Notes: a model not told the origin generated them from the letters alone. Numbered from the stretch's first letter, positions 1,586-33,098 are shown. The stretch is DNA of 64,000 bases from Rickettsiales bacterium (GCA_965248995.1 CBDFKY010000005.1:172719-236718); one strand, 5' to 3'. Made by a program: numbers and translations.

Positions 1586-1592
1586 TCACGCG

Positions 1593-4193: not shown

Positions 4194-4228
4194 GGGTTAG
4201 AACGATTTTGAAATCAGGATTTTTCTCT

Positions 4229-4254: not shown

Positions 4255-4265
4255 AATTTTCGTCA

Positions 4266-5399: not shown

Positions 5400-5401
5400 G
5401 T

Positions 5402-5926: not shown

Positions 5927-6078
5927 AATGTATCCTTAACGTCAAAAGTTCTATATAATGCCATATCCTTCTTACACCGATTCAATAACTTGTGTAAAGG
6001 ACAAAATTGGATTATGTCTTTCCTTGTAAGACGATATTTATCGTAATTTTTATATCCAATGCAGGAAATGTATACACA

Positions 6079-6309: not shown

Positions 6310-6310
6310 G

Positions 6311-7198: not shown

Positions 7199-7203
7199 AA
7201 ATC

Positions 7204-8796: not shown

Positions 8797-8911
8797 AATG
8801 GGTGGCGCAAGTGGCACGAGTGGCGCGACACTGCATCGCAGTCACTTCTGGGATGAAATACATATATCATCCGCTAAATAATGCCACTGGAAACGGCATT
8901 TATGCTTATAT

Positions 8912-9755: not shown

Positions 9756-9757
9756 CC

Positions 9758-10492: not shown

Positions 10493-10573
10493 GGGAGATG
10501 ATAATAAACGCACTGCCCTCACAGGAATCTGGACGCGCTGCACAGCCTGCTTCTCAAACGATAGGATGACATC

Positions 10574-11341: not shown

Positions 11342-11477
11342 CGAACCCTACTTAAAATGATTTTATCGTGTAAATTATCTGCCCCGCACCAGCTTTGACC
11401 AATACGAAAGAATAGGCTATCAAGCTACTAATAGGAAAACGTAACATATGCTTTTCGCATAAAAATAAACGGACATC

Positions 11478-15061: not shown

Positions 15062-15064
15062 TAT

Positions 15065-16651: not shown

Positions 16652-16824
16652 CCGATATGTATAGAAATGGTCGTTTTCTATGTGTGTTCTTTTTATAAAA
16701 ATTGAGTAGCAAGTTTCCGTAATTACCGAAGTTCCCTATACGGTTCGTTTTAAGAGCGGTCTTTGCTTCCACAGAATTCCCCCTTGCAGGACTCTCAAAA
16801 CATCTATATACTTCTACCTAACAT

Positions 16825-16857
16825 GACCAGCCCCACCACAGGCTGGTCTTCTTGTTT
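16825..16857 (+). terminator. candidate rho-independent terminator after the three-gene operon
   Basis: Hairpin gaccagcc-ccaccaca-ggctggtc followed by ttcttgtttg. Confidence 0.5.
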
Positions 16858-16865
16858 GTAGTGAG

Positions 16866-17210
16866 ATGATGAACTATTCCAAGCCTTACCTTGCTATCCC
16901 TGACCAGCTATCCTTACTTCAACAGCGCGGATTGCATATCACGGATCACGACAAAGCCGCGCATTACCTTTCTAACCTTGGCTATTACCGCCTTAGTGGG
17001 TATTCTTACGCCTTTCGCCAGAGTACACACCGCCCCGATGGAACCGTGCAGGTGCATGATGATTTCAAGGAAGGTGTGCAGTTTGATGACATCCTTGCCC
17101 TGTATGTCTTTGATAAGCGTTTGCGCCTGTTATTGCTGGTTGCGATTGAACGCATAAGCACTGCGAAGAATTCCCGCTCGCTCACAAGACCCTTGGATTG
17201 CGCCTCATGA
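16866..17210 (+). pseudogene. Abi_2 (AbiD/AbiF-like) abortive-infection gene, N-terminal fragment only
   Basis: The family-typical N-terminus is present (LSLLQQRGLHI...HYLSNLGYYRLSGYSYAF...LYVFDKRLRLLLLVAIERI). The sequence then diverges and stops at about one third of normal length. Confidence 0.65.
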
Positions 17211-17394
17211 TGACATCCGCTTCAAGTCTGCTCTATTTTTAAGAGAAAAGAATATACAATAAAGATAAAGAACGGCTTCATAATTATTTAATAATTATTT
17301 AATAGACAATGTATATAAACATCTTTATATTAAATTAATGCATACTGATTCTTTGAGTATGAAAGAAGATAAATCCTTATTATAGAGGCACCAT

Positions 17395-18207
17395 ATGAGC
17401 GAAGTTGAAAATGATGTTATTTCACGTGAAACAGCCAACGGATTTGAGGTAACAGTATTTAAGGGCGGGCAGATCGATGTAACGAATACACATGCTAAGC
17501 CAGGCGAGCTACAATCGGTTAGTGCGTTTCCTGACGGTAACCGCGCGGGGTATATCGCCACCGCAAATAATGGGATTGATCTTGCTCCCGCTGGCACAGA
17601 CTTAAGCCAGATGACACATGGTCATACAGTAGTGGAAATTGATCCTAAATTGTTACACGTGGAAGTGAAACATGACGGTATCACTATTTATAAAGTCGAT
17701 GAAACCAGAACGGTTGAGACGCGGCAAACACAAAAAGCTGAAAGTCCTCCCATCTTCAGTGAAACGGCAAATGGATTTCAGGTGACAGCTTTGGAAGGTG
17801 GTCGTATCATGGTATCCAATACGCACGCTAATACACCAGGGGAACTGCAATCGGTTGATTTATTTCCTGACGGAACACGTACTGGTTATGTTCTGACGGA
17901 AAATGGCGGCGTTGCTTTGGCTCCTGCGGGGATGGATCTTACGAAGATGACGCATGGCCACACCGTGGTGAACATTGATCCTGAAAAGTTAAAAGTGCAG
18001 GTGCTGCATGACGGTAAGGAAATTCTTGGACTTGACAGAACCGTCAAAACCGAGACACAACGCAGCAATGACCCAGCACGTTTTGAGGAAATGCTTCAGG
18101 GCTTAGATAAATCGGTGCTTGATAAAATAGCCCTTAACCCTTCAGATAGGGAACATACAAATACAGCCGAAAAATCTAATGCTAAGAGTGGTGGAAGACC
18201 ACGTTAA
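17395..18207 (+). CDS. orphan protein with two tandem repeats of about 110 aa
   Basis: ETANGFEVTVFKGGQIDVTNTHAKPGELQSV..FPDG.R.GY....N.G..LAPAG.DL..MTHGHTVV.IDP..L.V.V.HDG occurs twice. The flanks are AT-rich. I do not recognise a family. Confidence 0.55.
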   Translation: MSEVENDVISRETANGFEVTVFKGGQIDVTNTHAKPGELQSVSAFPDGNRAGYIATANNGIDLAPAGTDLSQMTHGHTVVEIDPKLLHVEVKHDGITIYKVDETRTVETRQTQKAESPPIFSETANGFQVTALEGGRIMVSNTHANTPGELQSVDLFPDGTRTGYVLTENGGVALAPAGMDLTKMTHGHTVVNIDPEKLKVQVLHDGKEILGLDRTVKTETQRSNDPARFEEMLQGLDKSVLDKIALNPSDREHTNTAEKSNAKSGGRPR

Positions 18208-18308
18208 TGCCTATCTAAAAAGGGTGGTGCCTCAGTTTGCATATGTTGTCATTCTGAGCGCAGCGAAGAATCTCACTGATACATAAGAAATCCTTTGCGA
18301 CGCTCAGG

Positions 18309-18383
18309 GTATGTCTTTATAAACGGTTGCGCCTGTTATTGCTGGATGCGATTGAATGCATAGAAGTTGGAAGGAACGTGTGA
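18309..18383 (+). pseudogene. second, degenerate Abi_2 fragment duplicating the 17098-17155 segment
   Basis: gtatgtcttt..ttgcgcctgttattgctgg.tgcgattgaa.gcata is about 88 percent identical by eye to 17098-17155. It has a 1-nt indel. It reads on as ...IEVGRNV and then stops, resembling the usual IERIEV continuation. Confidence 0.45.
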
Positions 18384-18501
18384 TAAACCTCATAGATGCT
18401 TTTCCCGCATCACCGCATATCAATGTAGGGATGATGGGAGCGCAAGGGGAATGGAAGCAGTGGGATTTATGGCGGTAATCCTTGCGTTTGCGGTGAAAAA
18501 G

Positions 18502-18527
18502 TCTGTGTAATTCCTGTGTAATCGTGC
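18502..18527 (+). repeat. second copy of the 26-bp tandem CTGTGTAAT element; candidate arm-type site (distal arm)
   Basis: Identical to 4229-4254. It lies about 125 bp inside attR. Confidence 0.6.
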
Positions 18528-18651
18528 CAAGAAAACCATAGAATATGAGAGAATAAAACTGTTATCTGAATCCGTCATTAAAGACCCAATAAACTGATTT
18601 ATATAAATATATAGAACTTTATAGAATGATACAGAACATATCCCTTGAGGT

Positions 18652-18707
18652 ATCATAATCCGCGTGTCGGGGGTTCAAATCCCTCTCCCGCTACCATATT
18701 TTTCAAT
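18652..18707 (+). repeat. attR: 56-bp direct repeat (duplicated tRNA 3' part)
   Basis: Identical to 4138-4193. No tRNA 5' half lies upstream, so this is a tRNA fragment and not a gene. Confidence 0.9.
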
Positions 18708-18775
18708 TAGCTATGTAGAACCTGCATAAGAAATAAATATTTTATGAAGTTAATGATCAACTTTGGCAACACAGT

Positions 18776-19090
18776 ACGCTCTCCGGTTCCGGCGCGCTCG
18801 CCAAGTGGCAGCAGTACCTCCCCACCCTACTCGGACTCAAGGATTACGTCCTCCACACCATCCCCCAGACCGAGGATTTCTTCGGCAATGCCATCAGCAC
18901 CCCCATCAACATCGTCGGCATGTCCGATACCCAGCTTCTTACCAACATCGTCGAGGAAGCGTACGGGCGCACCCTCCCCCTGACCATGGCGCAACTCACC
19001 GGCGGCATCACCTCCGACGCGGATGCCAGTAAAACATTGCAACCTGTAAATGATAATACTTCCTGGTTTTTCTCTTTACGAGCAGCATAA
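18776..19090 (+). pseudogene. orphan 3' fragment of an RTX-head-array gene (shared module plus NDN tail), no start codon
   Basis: It translates as TLSGSGALAKWQQYLPTLLGLKDYVLHTIPQTEDFFGNAISTPINIVGMSDTQLLTNIVEEAYGRTLPLTMAQLTGGITSDADASKTLQPVNDNTSWFFSLRAA and then stops. It is about 90 percent or more identical in DNA to 25830-26075. Confidence 0.8.
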
Positions 19091-19112
19091 AAATCTGGTA
19101 AGGAAAATTGCT

Positions 19113-19555
19113 ATGAAAAAACGATATCTGCTTCTGCTGCCTGTTTTCGCCCTGATGCTACCTGCGGGACTAAACTACTCTGGTATGTGCCTAGCGGAAG
19201 GCGGATGGCTTAGTGATGAGGAGCGGATTGATATAGCAATTCAACGCATCATTTCTCAAAAAAAAGTATGGATTTCTGATGGTGCAGCAGGTTCGCAAGA
19301 ATATGATTTTGTGCCCTATGCTTCAGTAAAGGAGTTTAAGAAAAAAAATCCCAATTGTTGTACTGTTTATGGGGGGGCTATAAGGACTATTTTCCATCCG
19401 ACTCTTTTTTAAATAAAATCTTTGGTTATGGTTATCATAACATCGCTTTTGACTATGAAGCAAAATACCTTGATAATGGAAAAATAAAAATTTCATACCT
19501 TAAAGACACTATTTACACTTACGATAATTGCCAAAAACTTAGAAACCTAAATTGA
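19113..19555 (+). pseudogene. small secreted protein (candidate immunity 1), split by a frameshift in a G7 tract
   Basis: Signal peptide MKKRYLLLLPVFALMLPAG. The ORFs 19113-19412 and 19355-19555 overlap. Adding one G at 19371-19377 fuses them into a 147-aa ORF. Confidence 0.6.
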
Positions 19556-19565
19556 TGAGATTGTT

Positions 19566-21224
19566 ATGACATTACCAAGCGCTAAGACAATTTTGAATTG
19601 GTACCTTTATGGAAGCAGTAATGTTCCCGTTGAAAAGGCTACGGATACTTTAATCCGTCCAGACGATAGAACAAGTACAGTGTCTATCAACAAACAGGAG
19701 TTTATGGATACGGGTGGAGGTCGTTTCGCAGTTGCATCACAGTTTGAACTTGTTCAAAGATTTTTTGCTGCACCTGTTGATTTATTTGTTCGTGATAAGG
19801 TTTACACCAAGACAGAAGTTGCTTCATTGCTTGGATATACTAGCAATGATTTTTATGGATGGGATATGCAGCAATACAACTTTGTAGATGGCAAAGATGA
19901 TCTTGCTGAACGCACTTACATATATAACTCAATGCGATTTAAAATTGTAGACAATACCACGTTTGTTTTACCTAGTGGGTCACTAGATGATCGTAAAATT
20001 ACTAATTTTGCATCAGAGCCAATTTATAAAGACGGTGCAGGAAACGTAACGGAAAATTTTGATCTTAAAAGTAATGATCTCGCTACGTTAATTGCAAATG
20101 GGGTGTTTCTTAAGCCTTGGAATGATCCTTCAGGAATTGGAAGGACTGTATATTTGAACTTTACTGGCAATGTAACTCCACGCACTACAGATTATACTCG
20201 TACTACTTATACAAATGAAAAAGATACTGCTTTAGCGTGGAATTCTTCTTATTTAAACAATGGATTATACGATAAAGTCAAAGCGCTATCTGATAATTTA
20301 TTTTCTGAGCAAGTCGGAACAACACGCTTTCTCGATTCACAAAACCGCCCTATTTTTTACGGTACAGACAGTGATAATTCCCTCTCAACGCATGACTTGC
20401 AAAGGGCTCCTTACTTAAAGCCTTATATTCAAAACGGAGTTGTCCTCATTGGCGGAAAAGGGAATGATACGTTAACTGGTTATGGCAAGAATGACCTGCT
20501 TATTGGTGGGGCGGGGGCGGATAAGTTCCATGTTCAAGGTAAGGAAACGATTCAAGACGCCACGCCGGAAGACCGTGTTTATATTAATGGCGTGGAAGTT
20601 ACAGGAGGGCTTAAGCCGCTTGGTTTTGATGTGCCGATTGCGGTAAATGAAGCGCGGGGACATGTATTTGAAGTGTTAAGCGGCGACATCAACCAGCCCA
20701 CGGGTGCGACATTGGCGGTCAAATATCTGTGGGATAATGATGCGATTGCTATCATCAAGGATTACACCCGCCCTTATTTGGGCATTGGCGATGGTAACAT
20801 TGAAATTTACGAATATAAGCATGGCACGCCAACTTCACTTTCTGATTTAATCAAAGCATACAACACTGCTTACAATAATACGACCAACACGACCACAACC
20901 GCAGGTGGCAGTTCCGCAGCCGCACCCTCTGGGGCGGATACCAATTCTGCCAATGCCAGCGCAACGGTGTACAAACCCACCATCGGCACCACGGAACTGC
21001 ATGCGACGATAGACGCGGTGTTCGACGGCCTGTCAGGTTCGGGAGCACTCGCCAAATGGCAGCAGTTCCTGCCAACATTGGTGAAACTCAAAGATTATAC
21101 ACTACATTCCATTCCCCAAACCGAAGATTTCTTCGGTAACGCCACCACCACCCCGATCCCGCAAGTGGGGATGAGTGCTGCTAACGATAATTTTTCTTTA
21201 ATGGTTCTCTTGAAAGCTGCATAA
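19566..21224 (+). CDS. RTX-module protein with an unknown AT-rich N-terminal head (about 295 aa)
   Basis: The C-terminal half has GGKGNDTLTGYGKNDLLIGGAGADKF nonapeptide repeats and a diverged copy of the shared module (..GLKPLGFDVPIAVNE..ALAKWQQFLPTL..IPQTEDFFGNA..). It ends in NDNFSLMVLLKAA. Confidence 0.75.
   Translation: MTLPSAKTILNWYLYGSSNVPVEKATDTLIRPDDRTSTVSINKQEFMDTGGGRFAVASQFELVQRFFAAPVDLFVRDKVYTKTEVASLLGYTSNDFYGWDMQQYNFVDGKDDLAERTYIYNSMRFKIVDNTTFVLPSGSLDDRKITNFASEPIYKDGAGNVTENFDLKSNDLATLIANGVFLKPWNDPSGIGRTVYLNFTGNVTPRTTDYTRTTYTNEKDTALAWNSSYLNNGLYDKVKALSDNLFSEQVGTTRFLDSQNRPIFYGTDSDNSLSTHDLQRAPYLKPYIQNGVVLIGGKGNDTLTGYGKNDLLIGGAGADKFHVQGKETIQDATPEDRVYINGVEVTGGLKPLGFDVPIAVNEARGHVFEVLSGDINQPTGATLAVKYLWDNDAIAIIKDYTRPYLGIGDGNIEIYEYKHGTPTSLSDLIKAYNTAYNNTTNTTTTAGGSSAAAPSGADTNSANASATVYKPTIGTTELHATIDAVFDGLSGSGALAKWQQFLPTLVKLKDYTLHSIPQTEDFFGNATTTPIPQVGMSAANDNFSLMVLLKAA
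20452..21180 (+). repeat. shared module, copy A (most diverged)
   Basis: Aligned by eye with 23008-23815 and 25275-26075. Confidence 0.7.
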
Positions 21225-21245
21225 AAATCTGGTAAGGATTACGTC

Positions 21246-21932
21246 GTGAAAAAACAGATACATATAACTGCTCTGATATTTGCAACTTTGTTAAATCTTG
21301 CAAATGAAACAAGCGTTGCAAATGCGAGTGAAAAAAGGGAATGGACGCTTGACCCTATAGATAATCGTGCGAATATTCCTAATAAGTTTCCGCTTTGCCA
21401 TGAATTGCTTTCTTTGCTAAACGATTCAGCAAATAAAGATTATATTCTTCAATGGAAGAAGGGAGATGTGGCGTTAGTAATTCCGAAGTCCTTCAAAAAC
21501 TTCCGTCTTCCCATTTGGAAGGACGTGCCGAAAGATCAATGGGGAGAAATACTTTCTAAAAAGGACCAAAAGAGCATGACACCAGCAGGAGGTATTCAAA
21601 CCACGCAGATGGATGTAGATCATGACGGGAAAGCGGATAAAATCCTTAGGTTTTGGATTGGCGATCCACAATCAAGCTGGCGTACCCCTAGATGTCGCGT
21701 GGCGTTAGATTCACTAAAGTATCTTAAAGCATTTAACACAGAGGGAGGCAATAATACTGATGCCTGTTTCATGCTCTATTATAAGGGCAGAGCCTATCAA
21801 AAAGCAGGTACAGCATTCATAATTGTTTATGAAGGTTCGCAAACTCGTACAATAGACGGTCTGCATTTCTATGCGTCACCTGTTTGCAGCTTTACTCCAC
21901 CTAAAACCTATTTTCAGAAATCCACCAAATAA
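21246..21932 (+). CDS. small secreted protein (candidate immunity 2)
   Basis: GTG start. Signal peptide MKKQIHITALIFATLLNLANETSVANA. The gene is AT-rich and ends 16 nt before the GH24-head gene. Confidence 0.65.
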   Translation: MKKQIHITALIFATLLNLANETSVANASEKREWTLDPIDNRANIPNKFPLCHELLSLLNDSANKDYILQWKKGDVALVIPKSFKNFRLPIWKDVPKDQWGEILSKKDQKSMTPAGGIQTTQMDVDHDGKADKILRFWIGDPQSSWRTPRCRVALDSLKYLKAFNTEGGNNTDACFMLYYKGRAYQKAGTAFIIVYEGSQTRTIDGLHFYASPVCSFTPPKTYFQKSTK

Positions 21933-21948
21933 CTACGGAGATCTTATC

Positions 21949-23823
21949 ATGCCCATCACCTATAAACCACTGACACAATCCGCTTATGTTACCCAGCGCT
22001 ATGATTTGATTCGTTTGTTTGAAAACTACAAACCCTTTTTATACGACGATTCAAAAAACAAAGCCACTATTGGCACGGGATTTAACGTGGAAGATGATAG
22101 GGTACGCATAGAAGTGGTAAAAGTAATTACGGTGGCGGCTGGCACCAATGCTGATGGAGACATTCTTAGTGCAAGCCTTAATAACATCATCTCCACCCAC
22201 GCATCCTCCAGCGCAAACACATTGGCTGGCTTGCTAAACCCAGAAATGAAAAACTATTCCGATGCGCACCCTACTCTAAATATGCGTACCACCTTCACCT
22301 TTACCAGTGAAGCGGAAGCCAAGCAGGTATTCAACACTCTTGCGCCAACTTATGAAAATGTGGTGAGTGCGAAACTGCCTTCCGTACCTCAATATGCAGA
22401 AGAACGGCTTGCGCTGTTTTCGCTTGCCTATAATAGCCCTACCCTGATCGGACCAAAATTAACCGCTGCAATTAGTGATGGCAATCGTGCCGAGGCTTGG
22501 TATGAAATCCGTTATGATTCAAACGGTGATGATCTGCCAGGCATTGCCAAGGGGCGATATTACGAGTCTGAAGTGTTCAAGCCGTACAAAGACCATGTCA
22601 ATCCAACACTGGATGAGGCAAAAGAAATGGGCACCATGTTTGCCCATCATAAAACAGATATTCTTGCCTATGACAAGCTGTACGGGGCACAATTAACGCT
22701 GGAGTATAATGCGCTATTTTCAAATGATTTAAAATACCATATAGAGCCTGCCATCACGTTACTAAAAACAACGTACAACATTCCTGTAAGCATTGCGTTA
22801 GATGAACTTCAAGTAGCGGACACTGAAAATCTCCACTTAAAAGGGGATGGCACGCCGAATGACGTTAACAAAAACGACTTTTTGATTGGCGATGACAGTG
22901 CCAACCTGTTAAACGGTGGGGGAGGCAGAAACGTGCTTGTTGGTGGTGCGGGCAACGATGCGTTGGGTGATTATAATGCAGCGACCACGATGGCAACCGC
23001 ATCACAACTTTACGGAGGCGCTGGTGACGACCACTTCGGCGTGTTTGGAAAAGCCGTCATCAAGGACATCGAACGTAACGACAAAGTGTATGTTGATAAC
23101 ATCCAGGTGACGGGCGGGATCAAGCCGCTTGGCTTTGATGTTCCCATTGCCACCAACTTCCAGACGGGCCATGTGTTTCAGGTAGCGGGTGGAGACATCC
23201 TACAAGAAAACGGCGCGACACTTAACGTCAAATTCCTGTGGGATAACGACGCGATCGCCACCATAGAGAATTACACGCGCCCTTACCTGCAGCAGGGTGA
23301 CGGGCATATCGAAATCTACCAGGTCGGGCATGGCTCCTCCACGCCGCTCGCCACGTGGATCAAAGCCTATAACGACGCCTATAACAACACCACGAACAGT
23401 ACCAACACCACTACAACAGCGGGTGGCGGTTCAGCTGCCGCGCCATCCGGTGCAAGCAACTCCGCTAATAGCAGCGCCAACGTATACAAACCCACCATCG
23501 GCACGACGGAACTGCATGCGACGATAGACGCGGTGTTCGACGGGTTCTCCGGCTCTTCCGCTTCCGCCGCACTTGCCAAATGGCAGCAGCACCTCCCCAC
23601 CCTGCTCGGACTCAAGGATTACGTCCTCCACACCATCCCCCAGACCGAGGATTTCTTCGGGAATGCCATCAGCACCCCCATCAACATCGTCGGCATGTCC
23701 GATACCCAGCTGCTCACCGATATCGTCGAGGAAGCTTACGGGCGCACCCTCCCCCTGACATGGCGCAGCTCACCGCAGGCATCACCTCCGACGCCGATGC
23801 GAGTAAAACATTGCAGCCCGTAA
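21949..23823 (+). CDS. RTX-module protein with a GH24 (T4-lysozyme-like) N-terminal head; the C-terminal tail is frameshifted
   Basis: RLFENYKPFLYDDSKNKATIGTGFN has E25/D34/T40 at the T4-lysozyme E11/D20/T26 spacing, and LALFSLAYN follows. A GGAG RBS lies at 21937-21940. A 1-nt deletion at 23759/23760 diverts the frame. The ancestral frame would end at 23864 (..KTLQPVNDNCIFNFILKAV). Confidence 0.8.
   Translation: MPITYKPLTQSAYVTQRYDLIRLFENYKPFLYDDSKNKATIGTGFNVEDDRVRIEVVKVITVAAGTNADGDILSASLNNIISTHASSSANTLAGLLNPEMKNYSDAHPTLNMRTTFTFTSEAEAKQVFNTLAPTYENVVSAKLPSVPQYAEERLALFSLAYNSPTLIGPKLTAAISDGNRAEAWYEIRYDSNGDDLPGIAKGRYYESEVFKPYKDHVNPTLDEAKEMGTMFAHHKTDILAYDKLYGAQLTLEYNALFSNDLKYHIEPAITLLKTTYNIPVSIALDELQVADTENLHLKGDGTPNDVNKNDFLIGDDSANLLNGGGGRNVLVGGAGNDALGDYNAATTMATASQLYGGAGDDHFGVFGKAVIKDIERNDKVYVDNIQVTGGIKPLGFDVPIATNFQTGHVFQVAGGDILQENGATLNVKFLWDNDAIATIENYTRPYLQQGDGHIEIYQVGHGSSTPLATWIKAYNDAYNNTTNSTNTTTTAGGGSAAAPSGASNSANSSANVYKPTIGTTELHATIDAVFDGFSGSSASAALAKWQQHLPTLLGLKDYVLHTIPQTEDFFGNAISTPINIVGMSDTQLLTDIVEEAYGRTLPLTWRSSPQASPPTPMRVKHCSP
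23008..23815 (+). repeat. shared module, copy B
   Basis: About 80 percent DNA identity to copy C at its 5' end by eye. Identity rises to 100 percent over 23591-23806, apart from one missing C. Confidence 0.8.
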
Positions 23824-23886
23824 ATGATAATTGCATTTTTAATTTTATCTTGAAAGCTGTTTAAGCTTTCTGATATTCATATTAGC

Positions 23887-24432
23887 ATGAAGAAGATAAT
23901 CAGACTCTGCCTTGCCTTATTTCTTGCGTTGCTGTGTGGAGCGGAGACGCATGCTGAAACCGTGACTAAAAAATATGAAGGAGATAGTTCCTTTACCTGT
24001 GGTGGAAAAACCTATTCGATACCCACGTATTTTCCTTATCAAAAATCTTATTCTTCTGGTACTCGCTATTTAAAAGCAAGTTGTTCAAAAACTGGCTTTG
24101 AAGTCAGCATTAATTTAGATAAAGACTGTCAAGGTCAACATGATTGCGAGGTAGCAAAATTTACTTTCGGCATTATCGACCAAGGAGTTATGGGTGTAAT
24201 TTCAGCAGGATATTTCAATACCACTAAAAGTTTTTCCTTGAAAGATGAGCCATTAAACGGTTTCTATCTGCCTTCCAAGTGTTATGCCTACTGTAATAAA
24301 ATGTTTTTTTTATGGTTTGATAATAATAAAGCGTACGCTATAGGTTCTGAGTTTTCTCATGGCTTCGAAAAAGATACAAGAGAGCTTGAACAGTCTGTTA
24401 AATCATATCTTCATAGCGCAAAAGGAAATTAA
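23887..24432 (+). CDS. small secreted Cys-rich protein (candidate immunity 3)
   Basis: Signal peptide MKKIIRLCLALFLALLCGAETHA. The stop lies 2 nt before the start of the giant gene. Confidence 0.65.
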   Translation: MKKIIRLCLALFLALLCGAETHAETVTKKYEGDSSFTCGGKTYSIPTYFPYQKSYSSGTRYLKASCSKTGFEVSINLDKDCQGQHDCEVAKFTFGIIDQGVMGVISAGYFNTTKSFSLKDEPLNGFYLPSKCYAYCNKMFFLWFDNNKAYAIGSEFSHGFEKDTRELEQSVKSYLHSAKGN

Positions 24433-24434
24433 CA

Positions 24435-27400
24435 ATGAAAGAGAAGCAAGTTACTATTTTCGAAACCCCTTTTATCGCAGATATTGGTGCAATTTACAAC
24501 AGTGGGCATAATGATTATATCAAATATCTTTTTGATGAAATGATTTTTCAGGGTGTTACTGAAACGAATCAGATTTCCTATGTCTTAGCAACTGCAAAAC
24601 ACGAAACTCAAGGATTTACTAGCTTACACGAAAAATATAATGGCAATTCTGCTTACGACTATTTCATGGCTAAATACAGTGATAGAACAGATTTAGGAAA
24701 TCGTCCTGGAACTGACGATGGATATACTTATTATGGTCGAGGATTTGTTCATCTGACCGGACGTGCCAATTACGAAAAGATGGGTAATCAGTTTGGAGTA
24801 GATTTATTAAATCATCCTGAAAAAGCAGAGGAACCTCTCCTTGCAGCAAAAATCGCCGTTTACGGTATGTTGCATGGTTCTTTTACGGGAGCCACACTTT
24901 CGCAATATATTAATTCAGATAAGGCAGATTATTTAGGGGCGAGAGCCATAATAAATGGTATTGATCAAAATTCTTTAATCGCTGGTTACGCTAAAGATTA
25001 CGACGCATTACTGGAATCAAAATTACCCACCAGAACGATTCCATATACATGGGACATGCGTACGGATAACGCCACCAACGATCTTATCAAAGGAGGCAAT
25101 GCTAACGATACGCTTTACGGTGGAAAAGGCGATGATAAACTCTATGGCGGGAAAGGTGACGACTACCTAGATGGAGGTGACGGCATTGATTACCTCTATG
25201 GTGGGCCTGGAAAAAACACATTAGTCGGTGGTGAAAAGGGTGATGTGATTGCTAACTTTGGTGGTCAGGATTCCATTTACGGAGGCGCTGGCGACGACCA
25301 TTTCGGTGTTTACGGCAAAGGCACGATCAAGGACATCGAACGCGACGACCACGTCTATGTCGACAACATCCAGGTTACCGGCGGCATCAAACCTCTCGGC
25401 TTCGACGTGCCCATCGCCCTGAACACCAAAACGGGGCATGTGTTCCAGGTCACCGGCGGCGATATCCTGCAGGAGAACGGAGCTACGCTGAATATCAAGT
25501 TTCTCTGGGACAATGACGCCGTCGCCACCATCGAAAATTATACCCGTCCCTACCTTCAGCAGGGTGACGGACATATCGAGATCTACCAGATGGGGCACGG
25601 TTCCTCCACCCCGCTCGCCAGTCTCCTCAAAGCCTATAACGACGCCTACAACAATACCACCAACAGCAGCAACGGCAGCAGCAGCGCAGGCGGCGCTTCC
25701 GCCGCCGCGCCCTCCGGTGCTTCCAATTCCGCCAACAGCAGCGCGGAGGTCTACAAGCCCACCGTCGGTACCGTCCAGCTGCGTGCCTCCGTCGACGGCG
25801 CGTTCGATACCTTGTCGGGTTCCGGTGCGCTCGCCAAATGGCAGCAGTACCTCCCCACCCTGCTCGGACTCAAGGATTACGTCCTCCACACCATCCCCCA
25901 GACCGAGGATTTCTTCGGGAATGCCATCAGCACCCCCATCAACATCGTCGGCATGTCCGATACCCAGCTGCTCACCGATATCGTCGAGGAAGCTTACGGG
26001 CGCACCCTCCCCCTGACCATGGCGCAGCTCACCGCAGGCATCACCTCCGACGCCGATGCGAGTAAGACCCTCCAGCCCATCATCATCGCTGCCGGCAATC
26101 AGTCCGTCACCGGTAACACGCTGGATACGCCCTACATCATCACCGGCAGCAACGCCACCGTCACCGATGCCAAAGGCTCCGACACCTACATCGTCGATCC
26201 CGGTTTCGGGTCGCTTACCATCAAAGATTCCAGCGGCGGCACTTATACCAACATCATTGCGGCCGCCTATAACCAGACCAACGTTCAGACCGATACCATC
26301 CGCTTTACCCACCTTACCGCCGATCATGCCTCCATCACCCGTGACGGCAACGACCTGCTCATCAGGGAAGTCGGTACCAGCAACCTGGTGCGCGTCAAGG
26401 ACGATTTCGCCCATGAAGCGGGCAGCTCGCTCCTGTTCAGCAGCAGCGCCGATCATGCCGTCGAGCAGATCGTGTTCGCGGACGGAGCGACCAAAACCAC
26501 CATCGACATCCGCCGTGCGGTCACGGAAGCGCAGGCAACGGACGGGAACGACCATATCATTGGCACCGTCGACCCGGATATCCTGCAGGGGAAGAAAGGC
26601 GCGGATACACTGGAAGGTGGCGATGGCGGAGATATGTATAAATTCAACGCGGGCGACGGAGCCGACCTGATCCGCGATCATCAGCAGGACGTGTTCCTGG
26701 ACAGTAACGACAGCGTCAAGTTCGGTGCGGGCCTCAGTCTGGACAACGCCGTCTTCACCCGCGTCGATGTCTCGGCCAGTGGACAGGCGACCGCGAACCT
26801 GGAAGGTAAGGGGCTGCTGATCGATTTCGGCGGCGGGGACAAGATGGTGATCGACAGCCAGTTCGATGTCTCAACGCTCGGTTACGGCACGTTCGACGCG
26901 TACAGCTTCGTGCCACAGGCCATTTTGAATAATCCGCTGAGCCAACTGGCTTCGGTGACGCAAATCCCGCCCGGTTTCGATTCCACCGGGTATACCAACC
27001 AGTCCGGCATCCATATCGTGACCAATACGGTCACGGGCGGATATGATGTGACCGTGGACGATATCAATTATCATTACACCACGCCCGCCAATCCGCAGGC
27101 GGGGGGGCTGGTAATTCCCGCCCCCGATGACCGTATCGAGACGTTCATCTTTTTCGGCGACGGCACTGCACTTTCCGCGGAAGAAGTACAGCAATTGATG
27201 GTGGACCGCGCGAAGACCGACGGTAATGACCATATCGCAGGGTTTGCAGAGAGCGAGACGCTCGACGGCGGTGCGGGGAACGATACGCTGGAAGGTGGAG
27301 ACGACGGCGATACCTACCTGTTCGGTCTCGGTTACGGCCAGGACACCGTTCATGACTCTATGACCAACGTGTTGATGAAAGCACCGGATACCGTAGAATT

Positions 27401-30400
27401 CGGTGACGGCATCACTACCGCTAATATTCACGCGACGCGGGCGGCAGGATCAGACGATCTGGTATTCAGGATTGACGGGGTGAGTGATACGTTGACCATT
27501 AAGAACCAGTTCGCCTCCAGCACGCTGGGACTGGACAGTTTTTATTCACTGAACGAACGCATCGAGTCGTTCCAGTTCGCGGGCGGCACCAGCTGGAACG
27601 CGTCGGATATTCAAACCAGACTGTTGCAGAAAACAGCGGGCAATGACCTGCTGCAGGGCTTTTTCTCGAAAGACGTGCTCGACGGCGGTGCGGGCAACGA
27701 CACGCTGATGGGCGGCGATATGGGCGATACTTATATCTTTGCCAAAGGGTATGGCAACGACGTCATCGACGACCGCATGACCAGTATCCTGTTCAAGGAT
27801 AACGACCGCCTCGCTTTCGGGCCCGGCATCACGAAAACCAATGTGAGCTTTGCGCGGGGAACGGATCAGGATGATCTGGTGGTGACCCTGAACGATACCG
27901 GTGAGGCGGTGACGATTAAAAACCAGTTCGACTACGAACCGTTCGAACCGGAAAGCATTTTCTCCATCAACAACGCTATCGAGGAATTTTATTTTTCGGA
28001 CGGCAGCGCCTATACCTATCAGGATATCTGGAACCTCCTGCTCAAAAGCACACCGGGTGACGATCACCTGATCGGCTTCTTCCGCAACGATACGCTGGAC
28101 GGCGGGGCCGGGAACGATCTGCTCGAAGGTGGTACTATGAGCGATACCTACATTTACGCTACGGGATACGGCAACGACACCATCCGTGATCTCGATTCGG
28201 GTATTACCAGTGACGATAACGACAAGGTGCAGTTCACCAACCTGACGCGTGCGCAAGTCACGTTCGCGGAAGGCGCCGACCGCAACGACCTCGTGGTTAA
28301 AATTATCGCGACGGGTGAAACTTTGACCATTATCGATCAAAACCTGACCTTTAACGTAGGCGGCCCACCTTATCAGATCGAACAGTTCATGTTCAGCGAC
28401 CAGACACTTTCCGCGGCAGAGGTGCGTACCGCCATTACCGCCAGCCAAGGCACGACGGGAAATGACACGATTCACGGCTCTTTCGGCAATGACACGCTGG
28501 ACGGCGGTGCAGGTAACGACCGTCTGGAAGGCGGCGACGGCGCGGATACGTACGTCTTCGGCAAAGGATATGGGCAGGACACGATCTACGATGTCGAGAA
28601 CGAAGTCTTCCTTGCGGGAAATGATCGCATCCTGTTCAACAGTTCGGTCACGCCCGCTGATGTGACGCTGGCACGCAACGCCAATCCGTTCGATCTCGTG
28701 GTAAAGCTCAGTTCCGGCGACAGCATCACCGTGCAGGACCATCATAAGATTTTCAATATTGGTGCGCCTCCTTTTGAAATGGCGACCATCGAGTTTTCCG
28801 ACGGCACGGTATGGAACACCGACATGATCCGCTCCAAGCTTTTGCAAGCCACGGCTGGCAATGACACCATCACGGGGTTTTTCACCAATGATACGCTGAT
28901 CGGCGGCAAGGGGAACGACCTGCTCGACGGTGGCGACGGCAGCGACACCTATATCTACAATACGGGCGACGGTGTGGATACGATCGCGGAACATCTGGCC
29001 AATGTGTTTTATGATACGCCGGATACGCTGCAGTTCGGCGCGGGCATCACGGAGGCAAGCATCAGTCTTTCCAAATCCAGCCTTTCCAGCACCGATCTGA
29101 CGGTAAAGATAAACAATGTCGCTGCAGTGGTGATCAAAGACCAGTTCAGTGATTATAACCATGTGGAACAGATAAAATTCGCCAGCGGCGTGGTGTGGGA
29201 CGATGAGGCGGTTCTTGCCAGACTGACCGGCGGCACGGCAGGGAACGATACGATTTCGGGCAGCACGGTCGTCAACACCATCGCGGGCGGAGCGGGCAAC
29301 GACGTGCTGGAATTCGCCGACACCGCCAACCAGCATTATACGCAGCATCTCCTGGGCGGTACGGGTAATGACACGTATTTTTACGGCAGCGGTTACGGCC
29401 CGACGTTCATCTCCGACAGCGCCGGGTCGGATACGCTGAAATTCAACTCCGGCATCACGCTTTCCAGCCTGACTTACGAACAGAGCCGAAACGACCTGGT
29501 CATCCATGTGGGCACCAGCGCGAATGACAGCATCCGTATCGAAGGGTATTTCGATGCGGGCAACGGCCACAGGGTAGAATCGCTCAACGTCGCGGGTACG
29601 ACGACTTCGCTTAATGCATTGCTCAGCACCAGTACGAACGGGAATGACAATCTGCTTGGCACCGCGGGCGCCGACGTAATGACGGGCGGCCTCGGCAATG
29701 ATACGCTGGACGGCGCCGGGGGACGCGATACGCTGGACGGCGGGCCCGGCAACGACCGCCTGATCGGCGGTGCGCCTTCACTGTACGAAACGGTGAACGA
29801 TGTTTATATCTTCAACATCGGCTACGGCAACGACACCATCTACGACGTGCAGCAGCATCTTTATTATTCGACGATGGATACGATTCAATTGGGTGCAGGC
29901 ATTACGCCGAACGCCGTGACGGTGATGCGTGATGGCGACGACATGGTGCTGCGCATCAGTGCCACGGACACACTTCGGGTGGAAAGCCAATTTGATGTCC
30001 TGGGCTACAACGCCGTGGAAGTGGTGCAATTCGCCGACGGTACCGTCTGGGGGATGCAGGAACTGCGCCAGCACGCGCAGACCGTAACCGACGGCAATGA
30101 TCTGATCGGCACCTATCATAACATCAATGACAGCGTCCATGCCGGTGCGGGTAACGATACGGTGCTCGGCTCCAGCGGTGACGACGCCATTTTCGGAGAT
30201 GCGGGGGATGATTTCATCAATTACCGCTCGGGCCTTTATACGGGATACTGCACGCTGGATGGCGGAGACGGTAACGATACGATCACCGGCTCAGGGAGTA
30301 GCGTCCTGATCTACGGGGGTAACGGCAATGATTCCATCACCGGCGGCATCGGCGACTACGATACGCTGCAAGGCGGCAACGGGAACGATACGCTGGACAA

Positions 30401-31475
30401 TGACAGCGGCTTTTTCGACAAGCTGTACGGCGGCGACGGCAACGACCTGATCCGGGCCGAAATCGGCGCCAGTCTGCGGGCAGGCACCACTGCCTATGCG
30501 AATACGGTCGATGGCGGCCTCGGCAACGATACCGTCAGCTTCCACAACAGCGGAGCGACGTCCCTCGTGGTGAACCTCGCAGCGGGTACGCTTACCGTGA
30601 ACTATGACTATAATACCGAGCATTACACCGTCACCGCCCCGTTTCTCAACGTGGAAAACGTCAGCATCAGTTCCGGCACCGTCACCATGATCGGCTCAGC
30701 TGCCAATAATCAGCTCATCGGCGCATCCGGAAACGATTCCCTGTCTGGCGGCGACGGGAACGACACGCTGCAGGGCGGCATTGGCGTCGACACGATGGAC
30801 GGCGGCAACGGCATCGACCTGGTCGATTACCGTGACCAGAGCGGCAACTGGAACATCAACCTGCTGACCGACAAGGCCGTTTATTCCAGTATCACGGAAA
30901 ATATCACCAACATCGAATCGGCTTTCGGCAGCAAAGGTAATGACACCCTCACCGGAGATGCCGGCGGCAATTTCCTCGGCGGCGCGGACGGCAATGATTT
31001 CTTGGCTGGCGGCGATGGGAACGACACATTGATGGGCGGTGCGGGTCGCGACACTCTAAATGGTGGCAACGGTACCGACATGGCAGATTACGGCGACGCG
31101 ACGGTCGGCTGGAACATCTCGCTCAGCGCCGGCACCGCCGTCTCTGCCGGTGTGACGGAAACACTGACGCTTATCGAATCGGTCAATGGTTCCGTGGGCA
31201 ACGATACCATTACCGGGGATGCGGGGGCGAACCTCTTGCTCGGCAATACGGGCGACGATCTGCTAACCGGCGGCATCGGCCGGGACACGATGACCGGCGG
31301 CGATGGGGCAGACATCTTCATTTTCTCCGCCCTCACCCACAGCCCGGATGCCACACCCGACATCATCACCGACTTCCAGCCGGGCATCGACAAAATCGAT
31401 TTGCGCGGCCTCGGCCTTACCGGGTTCGATACGGACGGCGGACTCACCGAAGCGGGAGAACTGCGCCTCGCTTAA
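24435..31475 (+). CDS. giant RTX protein (2346 aa) with a GH19 chitinase/muramidase-like N-terminal head
   Basis: The head has AKHETQGF...YSDRTDLGNRPGTDDGYTYYGRGFVHLTGRANYEKMG. GGxGxD nonapeptides follow, then the shared module, 8 RTX plus HCBP-related modules and a long nonapeptide block. It ends at an in-frame TAA inside the conserved C-terminus. Confidence 0.85.
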   Translation: MKEKQVTIFETPFIADIGAIYNSGHNDYIKYLFDEMIFQGVTETNQISYVLATAKHETQGFTSLHEKYNGNSAYDYFMAKYSDRTDLGNRPGTDDGYTYYGRGFVHLTGRANYEKMGNQFGVDLLNHPEKAEEPLLAAKIAVYGMLHGSFTGATLSQYINSDKADYLGARAIINGIDQNSLIAGYAKDYDALLESKLPTRTIPYTWDMRTDNATNDLIKGGNANDTLYGGKGDDKLYGGKGDDYLDGGDGIDYLYGGPGKNTLVGGEKGDVIANFGGQDSIYGGAGDDHFGVYGKGTIKDIERDDHVYVDNIQVTGGIKPLGFDVPIALNTKTGHVFQVTGGDILQENGATLNIKFLWDNDAVATIENYTRPYLQQGDGHIEIYQMGHGSSTPLASLLKAYNDAYNNTTNSSNGSSSAGGASAAAPSGASNSANSSAEVYKPTVGTVQLRASVDGAFDTLSGSGALAKWQQYLPTLLGLKDYVLHTIPQTEDFFGNAISTPINIVGMSDTQLLTDIVEEAYGRTLPLTMAQLTAGITSDADASKTLQPIIIAAGNQSVTGNTLDTPYIITGSNATVTDAKGSDTYIVDPGFGSLTIKDSSGGTYTNIIAAAYNQTNVQTDTIRFTHLTADHASITRDGNDLLIREVGTSNLVRVKDDFAHEAGSSLLFSSSADHAVEQIVFADGATKTTIDIRRAVTEAQATDGNDHIIGTVDPDILQGKKGADTLEGGDGGDMYKFNAGDGADLIRDHQQDVFLDSNDSVKFGAGLSLDNAVFTRVDVSASGQATANLEGKGLLIDFGGGDKMVIDSQFDVSTLGYGTFDAYSFVPQAILNNPLSQLASVTQIPPGFDSTGYTNQSGIHIVTNTVTGGYDVTVDDINYHYTTPANPQAGGLVIPAPDDRIETFIFFGDGTALSAEEVQQLMVDRAKTDGNDHIAGFAESETLDGGAGNDTLEGGDDGDTYLFGLGYGQDTVHDSMTNVLMKAPDTVEFGDGITTANIHATRAAGSDDLVFRIDGVSDTLTIKNQFASSTLGLDSFYSLNERIESFQFAGGTSWNASDIQTRLLQKTAGNDLLQGFFSKDVLDGGAGNDTLMGGDMGDTYIFAKGYGNDVIDDRMTSILFKDNDRLAFGPGITKTNVSFARGTDQDDLVVTLNDTGEAVTIKNQFDYEPFEPESIFSINNAIEEFYFSDGSAYTYQDIWNLLLKSTPGDDHLIGFFRNDTLDGGAGNDLLEGGTMSDTYIYATGYGNDTIRDLDSGITSDDNDKVQFTNLTRAQVTFAEGADRNDLVVKIIATGETLTIIDQNLTFNVGGPPYQIEQFMFSDQTLSAAEVRTAITASQGTTGNDTIHGSFGNDTLDGGAGNDRLEGGDGADTYVFGKGYGQDTIYDVENEVFLAGNDRILFNSSVTPADVTLARNANPFDLVVKLSSGDSITVQDHHKIFNIGAPPFEMATIEFSDGTVWNTDMIRSKLLQATAGNDTITGFFTNDTLIGGKGNDLLDGGDGSDTYIYNTGDGVDTIAEHLANVFYDTPDTLQFGAGITEASISLSKSSLSSTDLTVKINNVAAVVIKDQFSDYNHVEQIKFASGVVWDDEAVLARLTGGTAGNDTISGSTVVNTIAGGAGNDVLEFADTANQHYTQHLLGGTGNDTYFYGSGYGPTFISDSAGSDTLKFNSGITLSSLTYEQSRNDLVIHVGTSANDSIRIEGYFDAGNGHRVESLNVAGTTTSLNALLSTSTNGNDNLLGTAGADVMTGGLGNDTLDGAGGRDTLDGGPGNDRLIGGAPSLYETVNDVYIFNIGYGNDTIYDVQQHLYYSTMDTIQLGAGITPNAVTVMRDGDDMVLRISATDTLRVESQFDVLGYNAVEVVQFADGTVWGMQELRQHAQTVTDGNDLIGTYHNINDSVHAGAGNDTVLGSSGDDAIFGDAGDDFINYRSGLYTGYCTLDGGDGNDTITGSGSSVLIYGGNGNDSITGGIGDYDTLQGGNGNDTLDNDSGFFDKLYGGDGNDLIRAEIGASLRAGTTAYANTVDGGLGNDTVSFHNSGATSLVVNLAAGTLTVNYDYNTEHYTVTAPFLNVENVSISSGTVTMIGSAANNQLIGASGNDSLSGGDGNDTLQGGIGVDTMDGGNGIDLVDYRDQSGNWNINLLTDKAVYSSITENITNIESAFGSKGNDTLTGDAGGNFLGGADGNDFLAGGDGNDTLMGGAGRDTLNGGNGTDMADYGDATVGWNISLSAGTAVSAGVTETLTLIESVNGSVGNDTITGDAGANLLLGNTGDDLLTGGIGRDTMTGGDGADIFIFSALTHSPDATPDIITDFQPGIDKIDLRGLGLTGFDTDGGLTEAGELRLA
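25275..26075 (+). repeat. shared module, copy C (inside the giant gene)
   Basis: See copies A and B and the fragment at 18776-19045. Confidence 0.8.
26539..30080 (+). repeat. eight tandem modules of about 130-150 aa (GND..L.G....LDGGAGND.LEGG.G.DTY.F..GYG.D.I.D ... D.L.FG.GI....V...R...DLV......D..TI..QF......IE...FADGT.W)
   Basis: The repeat starts are visible in the translation (TDGNDHIIG, TDGNDHIAG, TAGNDLLQG, TPGDDHLIG, TTGNDTIHG, TAGNDTITG, TAGNDTISG, TNGNDNLLG). This is the RTX plus haemolysin-type calcium-binding-protein-related pattern. Confidence 0.65.
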
Positions 31476-31586
31476 AGCGATGCCACCGACCGTACCTACA
31501 TCCGCACCGACCAGCTCGATTTCGATATCGGTCTGCAGGGAGATTATCGCACTACCCTCACTGCAAGCGATATTCTATGGAGCTAA
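31476..31586 (+). other. in-frame remnant of the RTX C-terminus downstream of the TAA at 31473-31475
   Basis: It continues in the same frame as SDATDRTYIRTDQLDFDIGLQGDYRTTLTASDILWS and then stops. This looks like the usual end of this class of RTX proteins. Confidence 0.6.
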
Positions 31587-31655: not shown

Positions 31656-32911
31656 GTGCGGCGCATATGGAGCGGCCTATGTTCGGCCCGTGAAAATGAA
31701 TTGCAAACAAACTGCAGTCCGTGGATAATGCGTGCTTCCGTACAGGCCCATGGATGCAATAGAAACTTTGTGACGATTTCCAGCAAATCCCTCACTGCCG
31801 AGCACAGATCGACTTCTGTGGAGTCTCAGCTTCGCATGATGCTGGAAAGTGTGAAAGACTATTCTATTTTCTGCCCGGACGCCGCGGGCATCATTACGTT
31901 ATGGAACAGCGGAGCGGAACGGCTGTTCGGGTATGCGGAAGCGGAAATTCTGGACCGCCACTGCCGGATTTTATTCACGCCGGAAGATTGTGAACTGGGC
32001 GTTCCCGAAAGGGAATTGAACACCGCCGGCAAAACCGGGTGCGCCACGGACGACCGCTGGCATATGCGCAAGGACGGAAGCCGTTTTTATGCCAACGGCA
32101 TCGTGCATCCCATCCGCGATGAAGCGGGCAGCCTGCAGGGATTCACGAAAATCGCGCATGATGTGACCGCGAAAAAGCTGGAGGATGAAAAGTCGCGTTC
32201 GACCGCAGGCCAGCATGAAGCGCTGATCGCTATCCAGCGCACGGTCATCGAAGCGGGCGGCGATATTCAGAAAGTGAAGGAGGCGGAGTACGGGATACGG
32301 GTATCGGCATCGCGGAAAAGCAGCTGGCGACCGTTTTCGACATATTCGTTCAGGCGGATTCCTCCATCAACCGTAAATACGGCGGCACCGGTCTCGGCCT
32401 CGCTATCACCAAGACGCTCACCGAGATCATGGGCGGCACCATCGCGCTGGACAGCAAAACGGGTGAAGGCTCGACGTTTACGGTGTGCGTCGAATTGCCC
32501 ATAGCTTCACCGGACCCATCGGAAATCAGGGCTCCCGAATACGATATCCAGCCTGCGCATCCCCATGCGCCGGTAATTCTCATTGTGGGAGAGAATGCAT
32601 CGAATGTTGGGGAGCCACTCAATGTCTTGAGAAGTCCGGCATTGCTTACCAGGTTGTCACCAGCGGCGGCGAAGCGCTGGAACGGTTGGAAAAAGGCCAT
32701 CGCTTCGCCGCCGTGTTGATGGACGTTCAGATGCAGGGCATGAACGGGGTGGAAGCGACCAGCGTGACGGACATACGAGAAGCAGCATGGCATGCGGCAC
32801 ATCCCGATTATCGGCATGACGGCGTATGCGGCGACCGGTAATAAGGAACGTTGTATTGCCGCCGGTATGGACGATTACCTCACCCGGCCTTTTAATCCCT
32901 CCGAAGTGTAG
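31656..32911 (+). pseudogene. degraded hybrid sensor histidine kinase / response regulator (PAS ... HATPase remnant ... REC)
   Basis: An intact PAS domain is present (MLESVKDYSIFCPDAAGIITLWNSGAERLFGY...). HisKA and most of the HATPase are missing. The remnants DTGIGIAEKQLATVFDIFVQADSS..GGTGLGLAITKTLTEIMGGTIALDSKTGEGSTF and the receiver segments (LMDVQMQGMNGVEAT; IPIIGMTAYA; AAGMDDYLTRPF) lie in three different frames. Confidence 0.7.
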
Positions 32912-33098
32912 GAAAAACTGGCGTCATTCGATGTCATCACGCCAACGAACATCTAAGGCTGACAGCCGTGGAGCATGTCCGGGCAATGTATGTGCCATGG
33001 ATTTACATGCCGCTTTTATCTGCAGGCCGTTCAGCGATACCTGATTCTGCACTCGATACATCTGGATTTTGTGGATGAAAGGCGATAAGTTCATTTTT

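Follow-up and report, generated by a model that had tools for sequence, protein, structure and literature searches.

The 64,000-nucleotide stretch of Rickettsiales DNA analysed here (GCA_965248995.1 CBDFKY010000005.1:172719-236718; hereafter the window) holds a candidate polymorphic toxin-immunity array. In the region 18775-31475, one protein module recurs in four direct copies, and each complete copy follows a different N-terminal domain, which we call a head. Repeat finding and alignments both recovered the four direct copies that the initial annotation, made from the sequence alone, had described. The different AT-rich heads that it placed before each complete copy are likewise present: heads and the small open reading frames (ORFs) preceding them have a G+C content of 0.36-0.44, compared with 0.51-0.60 for the modules, 0.58 for the RTX body and 0.60 for the flanking genes. 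The array is composed of the following features.

18775-19045, + strand: fragment 0, the 3′ part of the module (…SGSGALAKWQQ…ASKTLQP) with its 5′ side missing, from in-frame translation.
19046-19090, + strand: tail 0, VNDNTSWFFSLRAA and a stop, after the TLQP of fragment 0.
19113-19555, + strand: small ORF 1, with an N-terminal signal-like sequence, frameshifted; candidate partner of head 1.
19566-21224, + strand: displaced gene 1, 552 aa, comprising head 1, a short RTX block, module copy 1, and a tail with stop.
19566-20465, + strand: head 1, function unassigned, with twelve homologues and an AlphaFold2 model.
20499-21176, + strand: module copy 1, within ORF 19566-21224.
21177-21224, + strand: tail of gene 1, AANDNFSLMVLLKAA and a stop, after the VGMS of copy 1.
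21246-21932, + strand: small ORF 2, 228 aa, with a signal-peptide-like N-terminus (…SVANA/SE); candidate partner of head 2.
21949-23823, + strand: displaced gene 2, comprising a GH24-like head (head 2), a short RTX block and module copy 2.
23008-23700, + strand: module copy 2, within ORF 21949-23823, with homology extending to about 23819.
23820-23864, + strand: tail 2, VNDNCIFNFILKAV and a stop, after the TLQP of copy 2.
23887-24432, + strand: small ORF 3, 181 aa, with a signal-peptide-like N-terminus; candidate partner of the GH19 head.
24435-31475, + strand: RTX gene, 2346 aa as read, comprising the GH19 head, a short RTX block, module copy 3, and an RTX body with HCBP_related repeats.
About 24435-25120, + strand: head 3, GH19 endolysin type, from Pfam, PHROG and PDB matches.
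25275-25958, + strand: module copy 3, within ORF 24435-31475, with homology extending to 26078.
31473-31475, + strand: premature in-frame TAA, where homologues encode Tyr.
31476-31586, + strand: cut-off remainder of the RTX gene in the same frame, 36 codons (SDATDRTYIRTDQLDFDIGLQGDYRTTLTASDILWS) and the natural stop.

The module is about 230-270 aa long. Its first half, of about 115 aa (VYVDNIQVTGG…GDGHIEIY), is joined to a second half of about 70-110 aa (VYKPT…ALAKWQQ…TEDFFGN…) by a low-complexity linker of Asn, Thr, Ser, Ala and Gly. The earlier term "shared RTX module" is a misnomer, as the module proper contains no RTX repeats and only adjoins a short RTX block directly before it. At the protein level, copies 2 and 1 are 85% and 67% identical to copy 3, respectively, and fragment 0 shows 92-98% DNA identity to copy 3. 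The homology of fragment 0, copy 2 and copy 3 extends as far as the motif …ASKTLQP (19045, about 23819 and 26078).

Identity between the copies changes abruptly along the module. Copies 2 and 3 are 72-87% identical in DNA over 25262-25800 and then 98-100% identical from about 25830 to about 26050, a stretch that reaches the junction and spans about 210 nt or more. It is over this stretch that fragment 0 has its 92-98% identity to copy 3. The identity of copy 1 to the others is 55-77%, apart from a patch of 83-93% with copy 2 at 25726-25800, where copy 3 differs. Such abrupt changes point to recombination or gene conversion within the shared handle, and a mosaic of this kind is what recombination predicts. 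The three upstream units retain module homology that would permit recombination, as orphan cassettes of polymorphic toxin systems do.

The heads are all different. Head 3 is solidly placed by sequence comparison among the GH19 enzymes of endolysin type, and the earlier assignment of a GH19-like head was well founded. It matches Pfam PF00182 (4.5e-8, 33.6 bits against a cut-off of 25.5), a PHROG endolysin family (1.4e-32), and endolysins and chitinases in the PDB (down to 1e-9). The family motif with its two catalytic glutamates (HE[TS]xG … E) is present as AKHETQG…LHEKY (HET...E), AKHETQGFTSLHEKY aligns with endolysin motifs, and the nearest relatives are phage endolysins rather than chitinases. 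Head 2 is probably a GH24 lysozyme. A catalytic triad at T4 lysozyme spacing, as proposed, is consistent with the alignment of E25/D34/T40 with E11/D20/T26 of the phage enzyme (BLASTP, pairwise E 0.007). The Pfam Phage_lysozyme model (PF00959) passes its cut-off of 22.3 bits narrowly, at 23.6-25.8 bits, and covers the C-terminal lobe only, and no match was found in PHROGs or the PDB.

Head 1 matched no curated family and no PDB sequence. It has twelve homologues (P0012-P0023) of 34-45% identity, several of them named from cyanobacterial metagenome-assembled genomes (MAGs). The domain is N-terminal in small RTX proteins, many of which carry C-terminal RTX repeats, and the family conserves the motifs DDYAERVYIYNS, DPSxIGRTV and RPIxYGT. 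An AlphaFold2 model built on the homologue alignment reached a predicted local distance difference test (pLDDT) score of 83.4 and a predicted template modelling score of 0.81, and a Foldseek comparison of this model with the PDB gave no fold match (best E 2.5). Head 1 is a real domain of an uncharacterised family.

The last gene is the long one. It matches HemolysinCabind over 17 stretches (8.3e-85), HCBP_related over 6 stretches and NCBIfam RTX_toxin (5e-126), and its C-terminal region is of Peptidase_M10_C type with matches to serralysin models. Type I RTX proteins carry their export signal at the C-terminus, and type I secretion signals are uncleaved and lie within the last 50-60 residues or so. 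The RTX repeats and the Peptidase_M10_C-type region agree with the view of the initial annotation that this body ends as a type I secretion substrate. As read, however, the protein stops short of that end: comparison with homologues shows the TAA at 31473-31475 to be a nonsense substitution, by which the last 36 residues are lost, and with them the region where such signals lie. At this site, the related locus L006 has the codon TAT (…GELRVAYSAST), and L001 has a Tyr and reads through as AGEIRFVYSSNNDFTYVRTDQSNFEF.

The module is exceedingly rare: among 1.84 billion representative proteins, an exhaustive profile search returned 11 matches, and a word-indexed protein search with the module returned none, itself included. 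Scanning genomes with the three window copies gave nothing; a five-sequence alignment of the module's first half gave matches, and a nine-sequence module alignment was too diverse for searching. A plasmid DNA search produced a trivial RTX match only. The feature is real and extends beyond this genome, and the same ordered plan with different heads and partners is found in five independent assemblies (L002, L003, L004, L005 and L006).

The RTX gene of L006, a metagenome contig, has 72% DNA identity to that of the window, which indicates a related organism. Along this locus, a module fragment comes first, then a 173-aa ORF and an M10 protease head joined to the module; after two paralogues of small ORF 3 come a GH19 head and the RTX body. 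The terminal GH19 unit is thus common to both loci, and the stored unit is different. In L002, an alphaproteobacterial MAG, the array runs from a module fragment with tail through a 203-aa membrane ORF to a 611-aa head-and-module protein, after which a 185-aa membrane ORF precedes a 3393-aa RTX gene that bears another head. In L003, a signal-peptide ORF is followed by a truncated head with RTX block, and a lipoprotein-like ORF by an RTX gene whose head is a protease. On the small contig L004, which is 92% identical over the module's first half, a truncated gene is followed by a 109-aa membrane ORF and a new head.

L005 (JGI 3300059061 Ga0574372_04439) encodes small RTX toxins of the same logic at 511-6790. 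A phospholipase-like head and a homologue of head 1 share a near-identical C-terminal region of about 150 aa, and a separate ORF precedes either of them. Downstream there is one more pair, which is truncated, and RepB/ParB-type genes make the contig look plasmid-borne. In L001, a Rickettsiales MAG, there is one giant gene of the same build. This RTX gene and a five-helix membrane ORF (8334-8798) occupy 2343-8800 directly after rpsC, so that the run tuf-rpsJ-rplC-rplD-rplW-rplB-rplV-rpsC is interrupted at the expected rplP site; this is either an unusual insertion site or a misassembly of the MAG. Among the matching proteins, P0002 and P0011 have M10 metalloprotease heads (HEISHALGL and HEIGHALGL), and P0003 has an uncharacterised head.

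Modules that are at least 80% identical carry six or more different heads (three in the window, the M10 head of L006/P0002 and two in L004), and more heads are found on more distant modules. Homologous loci therefore do not carry one fixed head, as L006, L004, L002 and L003 illustrate, in line with the cassette variation that the initial annotation expected.

The small ORFs lie 10, 16 and 2 nt before heads 1, 2 and 3, respectively. A different signal-peptide ORF just upstream of each head had been proposed, and the spacing and the N-termini agree with this for small ORFs 2 and 3, which are intact. Small ORF 1 is not: it is split over two overlapping frames near a G7 run (19371-19377), and reading 19113-19555 in a single frame gives stops. 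None of the three matches Pfam, NCBIfam, PHROGs or the PDB. An indexed search with small ORF 3 found only itself, and its L006 homologue came from the gene neighbourhood.

Conservation of the pairs is informative. The L005 ORF directly upstream of the head-1 homologue resembles small ORF 1 (E 2e-14; motifs PAGLNYSG.C, WLSDEE and NPNCC), and in L006 the GH19 head directly follows an ORF with 41% identity to small ORF 3 (E 9e-43). Two linked pairs, head 1 with small ORF 1 and the GH19 head with small ORF 3, are thus conserved elsewhere. In L006, 11887-12996 holds the two small-ORF-3 paralogues in tandem upstream of the GH19 head, one of them frameshifted; the contig has 3x coverage, and the frameshift may therefore be a sequencing error. 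The GH19 heads of the window and L006 are 57% identical, and the module of the displaced L006 gene P0002 is 80% identical to copy 3. With 57% for the head and 41% for the partner against about 80% for the module, head and partner appear to evolve faster than the scaffold. The type of partner also tracks the type of head: signal-peptide proteins adjoin cell-wall hydrolases, and multi-pass membrane proteins adjoin heads with hydrophobic segments (L002, L004, and the phospholipase-like head of L005). From this arrangement, we infer that the small proteins are putative periplasmic immunity proteins or inhibitors.

The same features could be indicative of another lifestyle, in which the proteins are secreted exoenzymes acting on chitin, cell wall or protein for nutrition or host interaction, and the small proteins are periplasmic inhibitors like those of the serralysin-Inh/AprI systems. 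The small ORFs would then guard the producer from leaked enzyme, and the upstream copies would be duplicates in decay that play no part in competition between bacteria. Serralysin-type M10 heads in P0002, P0011 and L003, the fact that GH19 is also a chitinase family, the Peptidase_M10_C and serralysin matches of the RTX C-terminal region, and the decay of the locus in this genome all fit such a role. Nevertheless, we consider it unlikely, since head turnover among close relatives and conserved exchange units with a common boundary tail typify conflict systems, membrane-protein partners adjoin the heads with hydrophobic segments, and the GH19 head is nearest to phage endolysins, not to chitinases.

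The locus itself looks decayed. With a nonsense codon in the RTX gene and a frameshift in small ORF 1, the system has probably lost its function in this genome or is losing it. Together with a 1-nt deletion near 23758, which shifts the frame of the last codons of copy 2, these amount to three lesions (frameshift, 1-nt deletion, nonsense codon) in 12 kb. Directly beyond the array, a hybrid PAS histidine kinase/response regulator gene (31656-33050) is heavily eroded, with at least three frame changes and its HisKA region missing, which shows that genuine pseudogenes adjoin the array. One could accordingly regard the whole region as pseudogene debris, or as an artefact of assembling a repetitive RTX gene, without any organised function. 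We give this very little credence: the ordered plan recurs with different heads and partners in the five assemblies, the heads are unrelated in sequence and hence not collapsed repeats, and the module copies differ by 15-45% in DNA, which excludes assembly duplicates.

Every displaced gene in the window has a short tail appended at its break. These tails (AANDNF…KAA, VNDN…RAA) resemble the alphaproteobacterial ssrA tag, which sends proteins to ClpXP by its AANDN-type start and its hydrophobic-Ala-Ala C-terminus, as the pattern of AANDNFSLMVLLKAA illustrates when set against the Caulobacter tag AANDNFAEEFAVAA (PMC1233412). Tail 2 lies in the frame that copy 2 would have without its 1-nt deletion, and tail 0 is followed by AAATCTGGTAAGGA, which is ribosome-binding-site-like. 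The L002 tails are NDNYMTECLAA, at the end of the 611-aa head-and-module gene, and NDTSMTKYLAA; those of L005 are ANDNNIFQFEIVA and ANDNYYDYGMKAA. All four end in a stop, which in both L005 cases overlaps with where the next small ORF starts. Across all sequences compared, the tail pattern matches 6 of 2499 open segments, and all six are at unit boundaries. The possibility that the tails are pieces of a tmRNA gene was rejected, as ARAGORN found no tmRNA gene and Rfam gave no tmRNA match up to E 10; the resemblance to ssrA is thus at the peptide level only. A second tail type, FL[TV]MQK[RT]H.S..L[MI]KSL..LT, occurs in L006 (9380-9500 and 11770-11900) and in P0006. In the DNA of this tail, TTGACA-N17-TAAGGT immediately precedes the start of the next small ORF, and the boundary may therefore carry a promoter as well. 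Promoter and terminator scans gave site numbers not above those in shuffled sequence.

The tails bear on whether the upstream genes are remnants at all. These genes could instead be complete small toxins that use module and tail as an export signal, in which case the array would hold several toxins active side by side. Each has a complete ORF with a start of its own, RTX repeats and a partner, the tail is kept across lineages, and in L005 a tail terminates a 744-aa RTX protein shortened by only about 10 residues. Yet the sequence before the tails is colinear with the interior of a full-length gene and breaks off after VGMS, TLQP or, in L002, GVLGS; moreover, the tail of copy 2 is out of frame, fragment 0 is headless, and the tails resemble a degradation tag, unlike natural full-length C-termini. 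We therefore find a battery of complete toxins improbable. The tail is probably a built-in degradation tag, which would mark stranded, non-secretable heads for ClpXP.

Taken together, the region is best described as an N-terminally polymorphic putative toxin-immunity array on a type I secretion RTX scaffold, a reading that we hold with moderate confidence on the basis of sequence comparisons. The module would serve as the homology handle for exchange. If a donor array and a recipient gene recombined by a double crossover, both exchanges falling inside the module, the result would be an insert composed of the rest of the module, the tail, a small ORF, a new head and the start of the module, which reproduces the observed order. 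Such an insertion would displace the previous head upstream and sever it from the RTX body. In the window, the GH19 muramidase head is the one now joined to the body, and the GH24-like head and head 1 are retained upstream as truncated genes. Recombination between direct module copies could rejoin a stored head to the body. That tail and stop, small ORF and head move as one unit had been suggested before, and the conserved tail at unit boundaries in three lineages lends support to this suggestion. Since the type I export signal lies at the opposite end of the protein, the whole gene order would be mirrored relative to CdiA and Rhs.

A further step, which we advance tentatively and regard as rather doubtful, is that the exchange unit carries its own silencer, in the form of an ssrA-mimicking tail and stop at the start of every incoming unit. 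A single insertion would then at once bring in a new immunity gene and head, sever the old head, and mark the stranded toxin for ClpXP.

Several points weigh against the toxin-immunity interpretation. A secreted cell-wall hydrolase would have to cross the outer membrane of its target, and enzymes of the GH19 family, like metalloproteases, also exist as ordinary secreted exoenzymes. No known immunity family matches small ORF 2 or small ORF 3. A screen that covered larger reading frames of the window found no type I secretion genes (ABC transporter, membrane fusion protein, outer-membrane channel), in agreement with the initial annotation. The module has no match in a PDB sequence search, and its AlphaFold2 model, made for ORF 1 with a three-sequence alignment, is unusable (pLDDT 28), so that its role is read from its position alone. 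Finally, the ssrA-like tail is absent from the displaced genes of L003 and L004, which have unrelated tails; the displaced gene of L006 carries the different conserved tail that it has in common with P0006; and the tail on the barely shortened L005 protein means that it may serve another purpose.

Descriptions of polymorphic toxin loci cover two-partner, type VI, type VII and related secretion routes, and the toxins in them are C-terminal. The array resembles CdiA/CdiI and Rhs in its conserved delivery scaffold with an exchangeable toxin domain and a partner gene directly beside it, in orphan units that retain scaffold homology for recombination, and in toxin sets that vary between related strains. 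It differs in that the variable domain is N-terminal, with partner genes and orphans upstream, and in that the scaffold is a type I RTX protein rather than a two-partner or type VI substrate. In addition, the handle is a new module of about 230 aa, not a VENN or PxxxxDPxGL motif, and the displaced genes gain a short conserved tail. A conserved scaffold with a variable toxin domain among relatives, in the sense of the 2012 survey of polymorphic toxins, is present here, and the survey's order of a C-terminal toxin with downstream immunity genes and cassettes is reversed (PMC3482391). The same survey mentions type I secretion for classical RTX toxins only (PMC3482391).

When the initial annotation contrasted the array with known polymorphic toxins as varying at the C-terminus, it did not take into account the effectors of the bacteria-killing type IV secretion system of Xanthomonadales (X-T4SS) or the FrpC/FrpD hypothesis (PMC6759196). 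In a plan similar to the one proposed here, X-Tfe/X-Tfi pairs have N-terminal toxins, including lysozyme-like domains and peptidoglycan hydrolases, a C-terminal secretion region, and an upstream immunity gene in a small operon (PMC6759196). One X-T4SS toxin domain is even homologous to the N-termini of large RTX proteins (PMC6759196). These effectors use another secretion system and a XVIPCD C-terminal domain, and they are scattered separate genes, without displaced heads stacked on one giant body.

FrpC/FrpD of Neisseria meningitidis is another close system. FrpC, a large RTX protein, leaves the cell by type I secretion, and the product of the upstream gene binds its N-terminal domain tightly (PMC5233953), and the pair has been hypothesised to be an antibacterial effector-immunity pair of type I secretion (PMC6759196). 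Between head and RTX body, FrpC has a self-processing module that cleaves at Asp-Pro upon calcium binding (PMC7078468). A matching site is found in L003 and P0009, where the start of an FrpC-type self-processing module (DPLVLDLDG(D/N)G…) follows the first half of our module. This position between the module halves of distant relatives suggests that the head and first half are probably a releasable warhead. For the window, the module was considered as a self-processing module of the FrpC/ApxIVA clip-and-link type, which begins with a cleavable Asp-Pro bond in D-PLxLDLDGDG, and this was rejected: its copies have no Asp-Pro site and a low-complexity linker instead. No sequence similarity to the FrpC head or to FrpD was found, nor were displaced-head arrays found in the published FrpC description.

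Serralysins with Inh/AprI share the N-terminal enzyme, the C-terminal RTX region with secretion signal, and an adjoining small signal-peptide protein that blocks the enzyme in the periplasm, and some relatives of the array have M10 heads. Serralysins differ in having one fixed head, no module repeats or stored heads, and a body of about 470 aa, compared with about 2000-3400 aa here. MARTX toxins are likewise giant type I exported RTX proteins, and their effector domains are reshuffled by recombination between strains; these domains are internal, however, are freed by a cysteine protease domain inside eukaryotic cells, and come without adjacent immunity genes or orphan arrays. Our literature search turned up neither this module nor the tag-like tail, nor any account of N-terminal heads stacked on an RTX scaffold.

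The upstream border of the array coincides with an integrative island of 14.5 kb (4138-18707) in tRNA-Met (4106-4182). It is bracketed by exact 56-bp repeats of the 3′ end of this tRNA gene (4138-4193 and 18652-18707), and its features include the following.

4266-5399, - strand: integrase.
6242-7198: Prim-Pol.
7204-8796: D5-type helicase (D5_N/DUF5906).
11478-13625: restriction-modification methylase.
13622-15061: specificity subunit of the restriction-modification methylase.
18652-18707, + strand: right-hand 56-bp repeat of the tRNA-Met 3′ end, exact, bounding the island.

The island also contains an uncharacterised 528-aa ORF and Abi_2 fragments, and it looks like a defence island. The Abi_2 gene is apparently split, with its N-terminal part at 16866-17210. 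Two copies of a 47-nt repeat (17110-17156 and 18316-18362), 89% identical, flank an unrelated 270-aa ORF (17395-18207) composed of two similar halves. The array starts 68 nt downstream of the right-hand repeat, which places fragment 0 next to tRNA-Met before the island arrived; the 5′ end of the array had probably been lost at this tRNA hot spot before that arrival. In L002, IS3-type transposase ORFs (4278-4944) abut the upstream end of the array, which, alongside the tRNA-Met of the window, suggests that array ends are often clipped by mobile elements. On the other side, 4.4 kb downstream of the array, a 792-aa protein (35965-38343, - strand) matches the Pfam family GT4-conflict, a family 4 glycosyltransferase of conflict systems.

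If the toxin-immunity interpretation is correct, the locus would extend the logic of polymorphic toxins to type I secretion, and it offers a concrete test of FrpC-like RTX proteins as antibacterial effectors with upstream immunity. Its new parts are the rare conserved module, a head 1 domain without a match among solved structures, and a possible encoded ssrA-like tag at the boundaries. Should the exchange unit indeed carry its own silencer, these would be N-terminally polymorphic type I toxins with a degradation boundary, spread horizontally across distant lineages.

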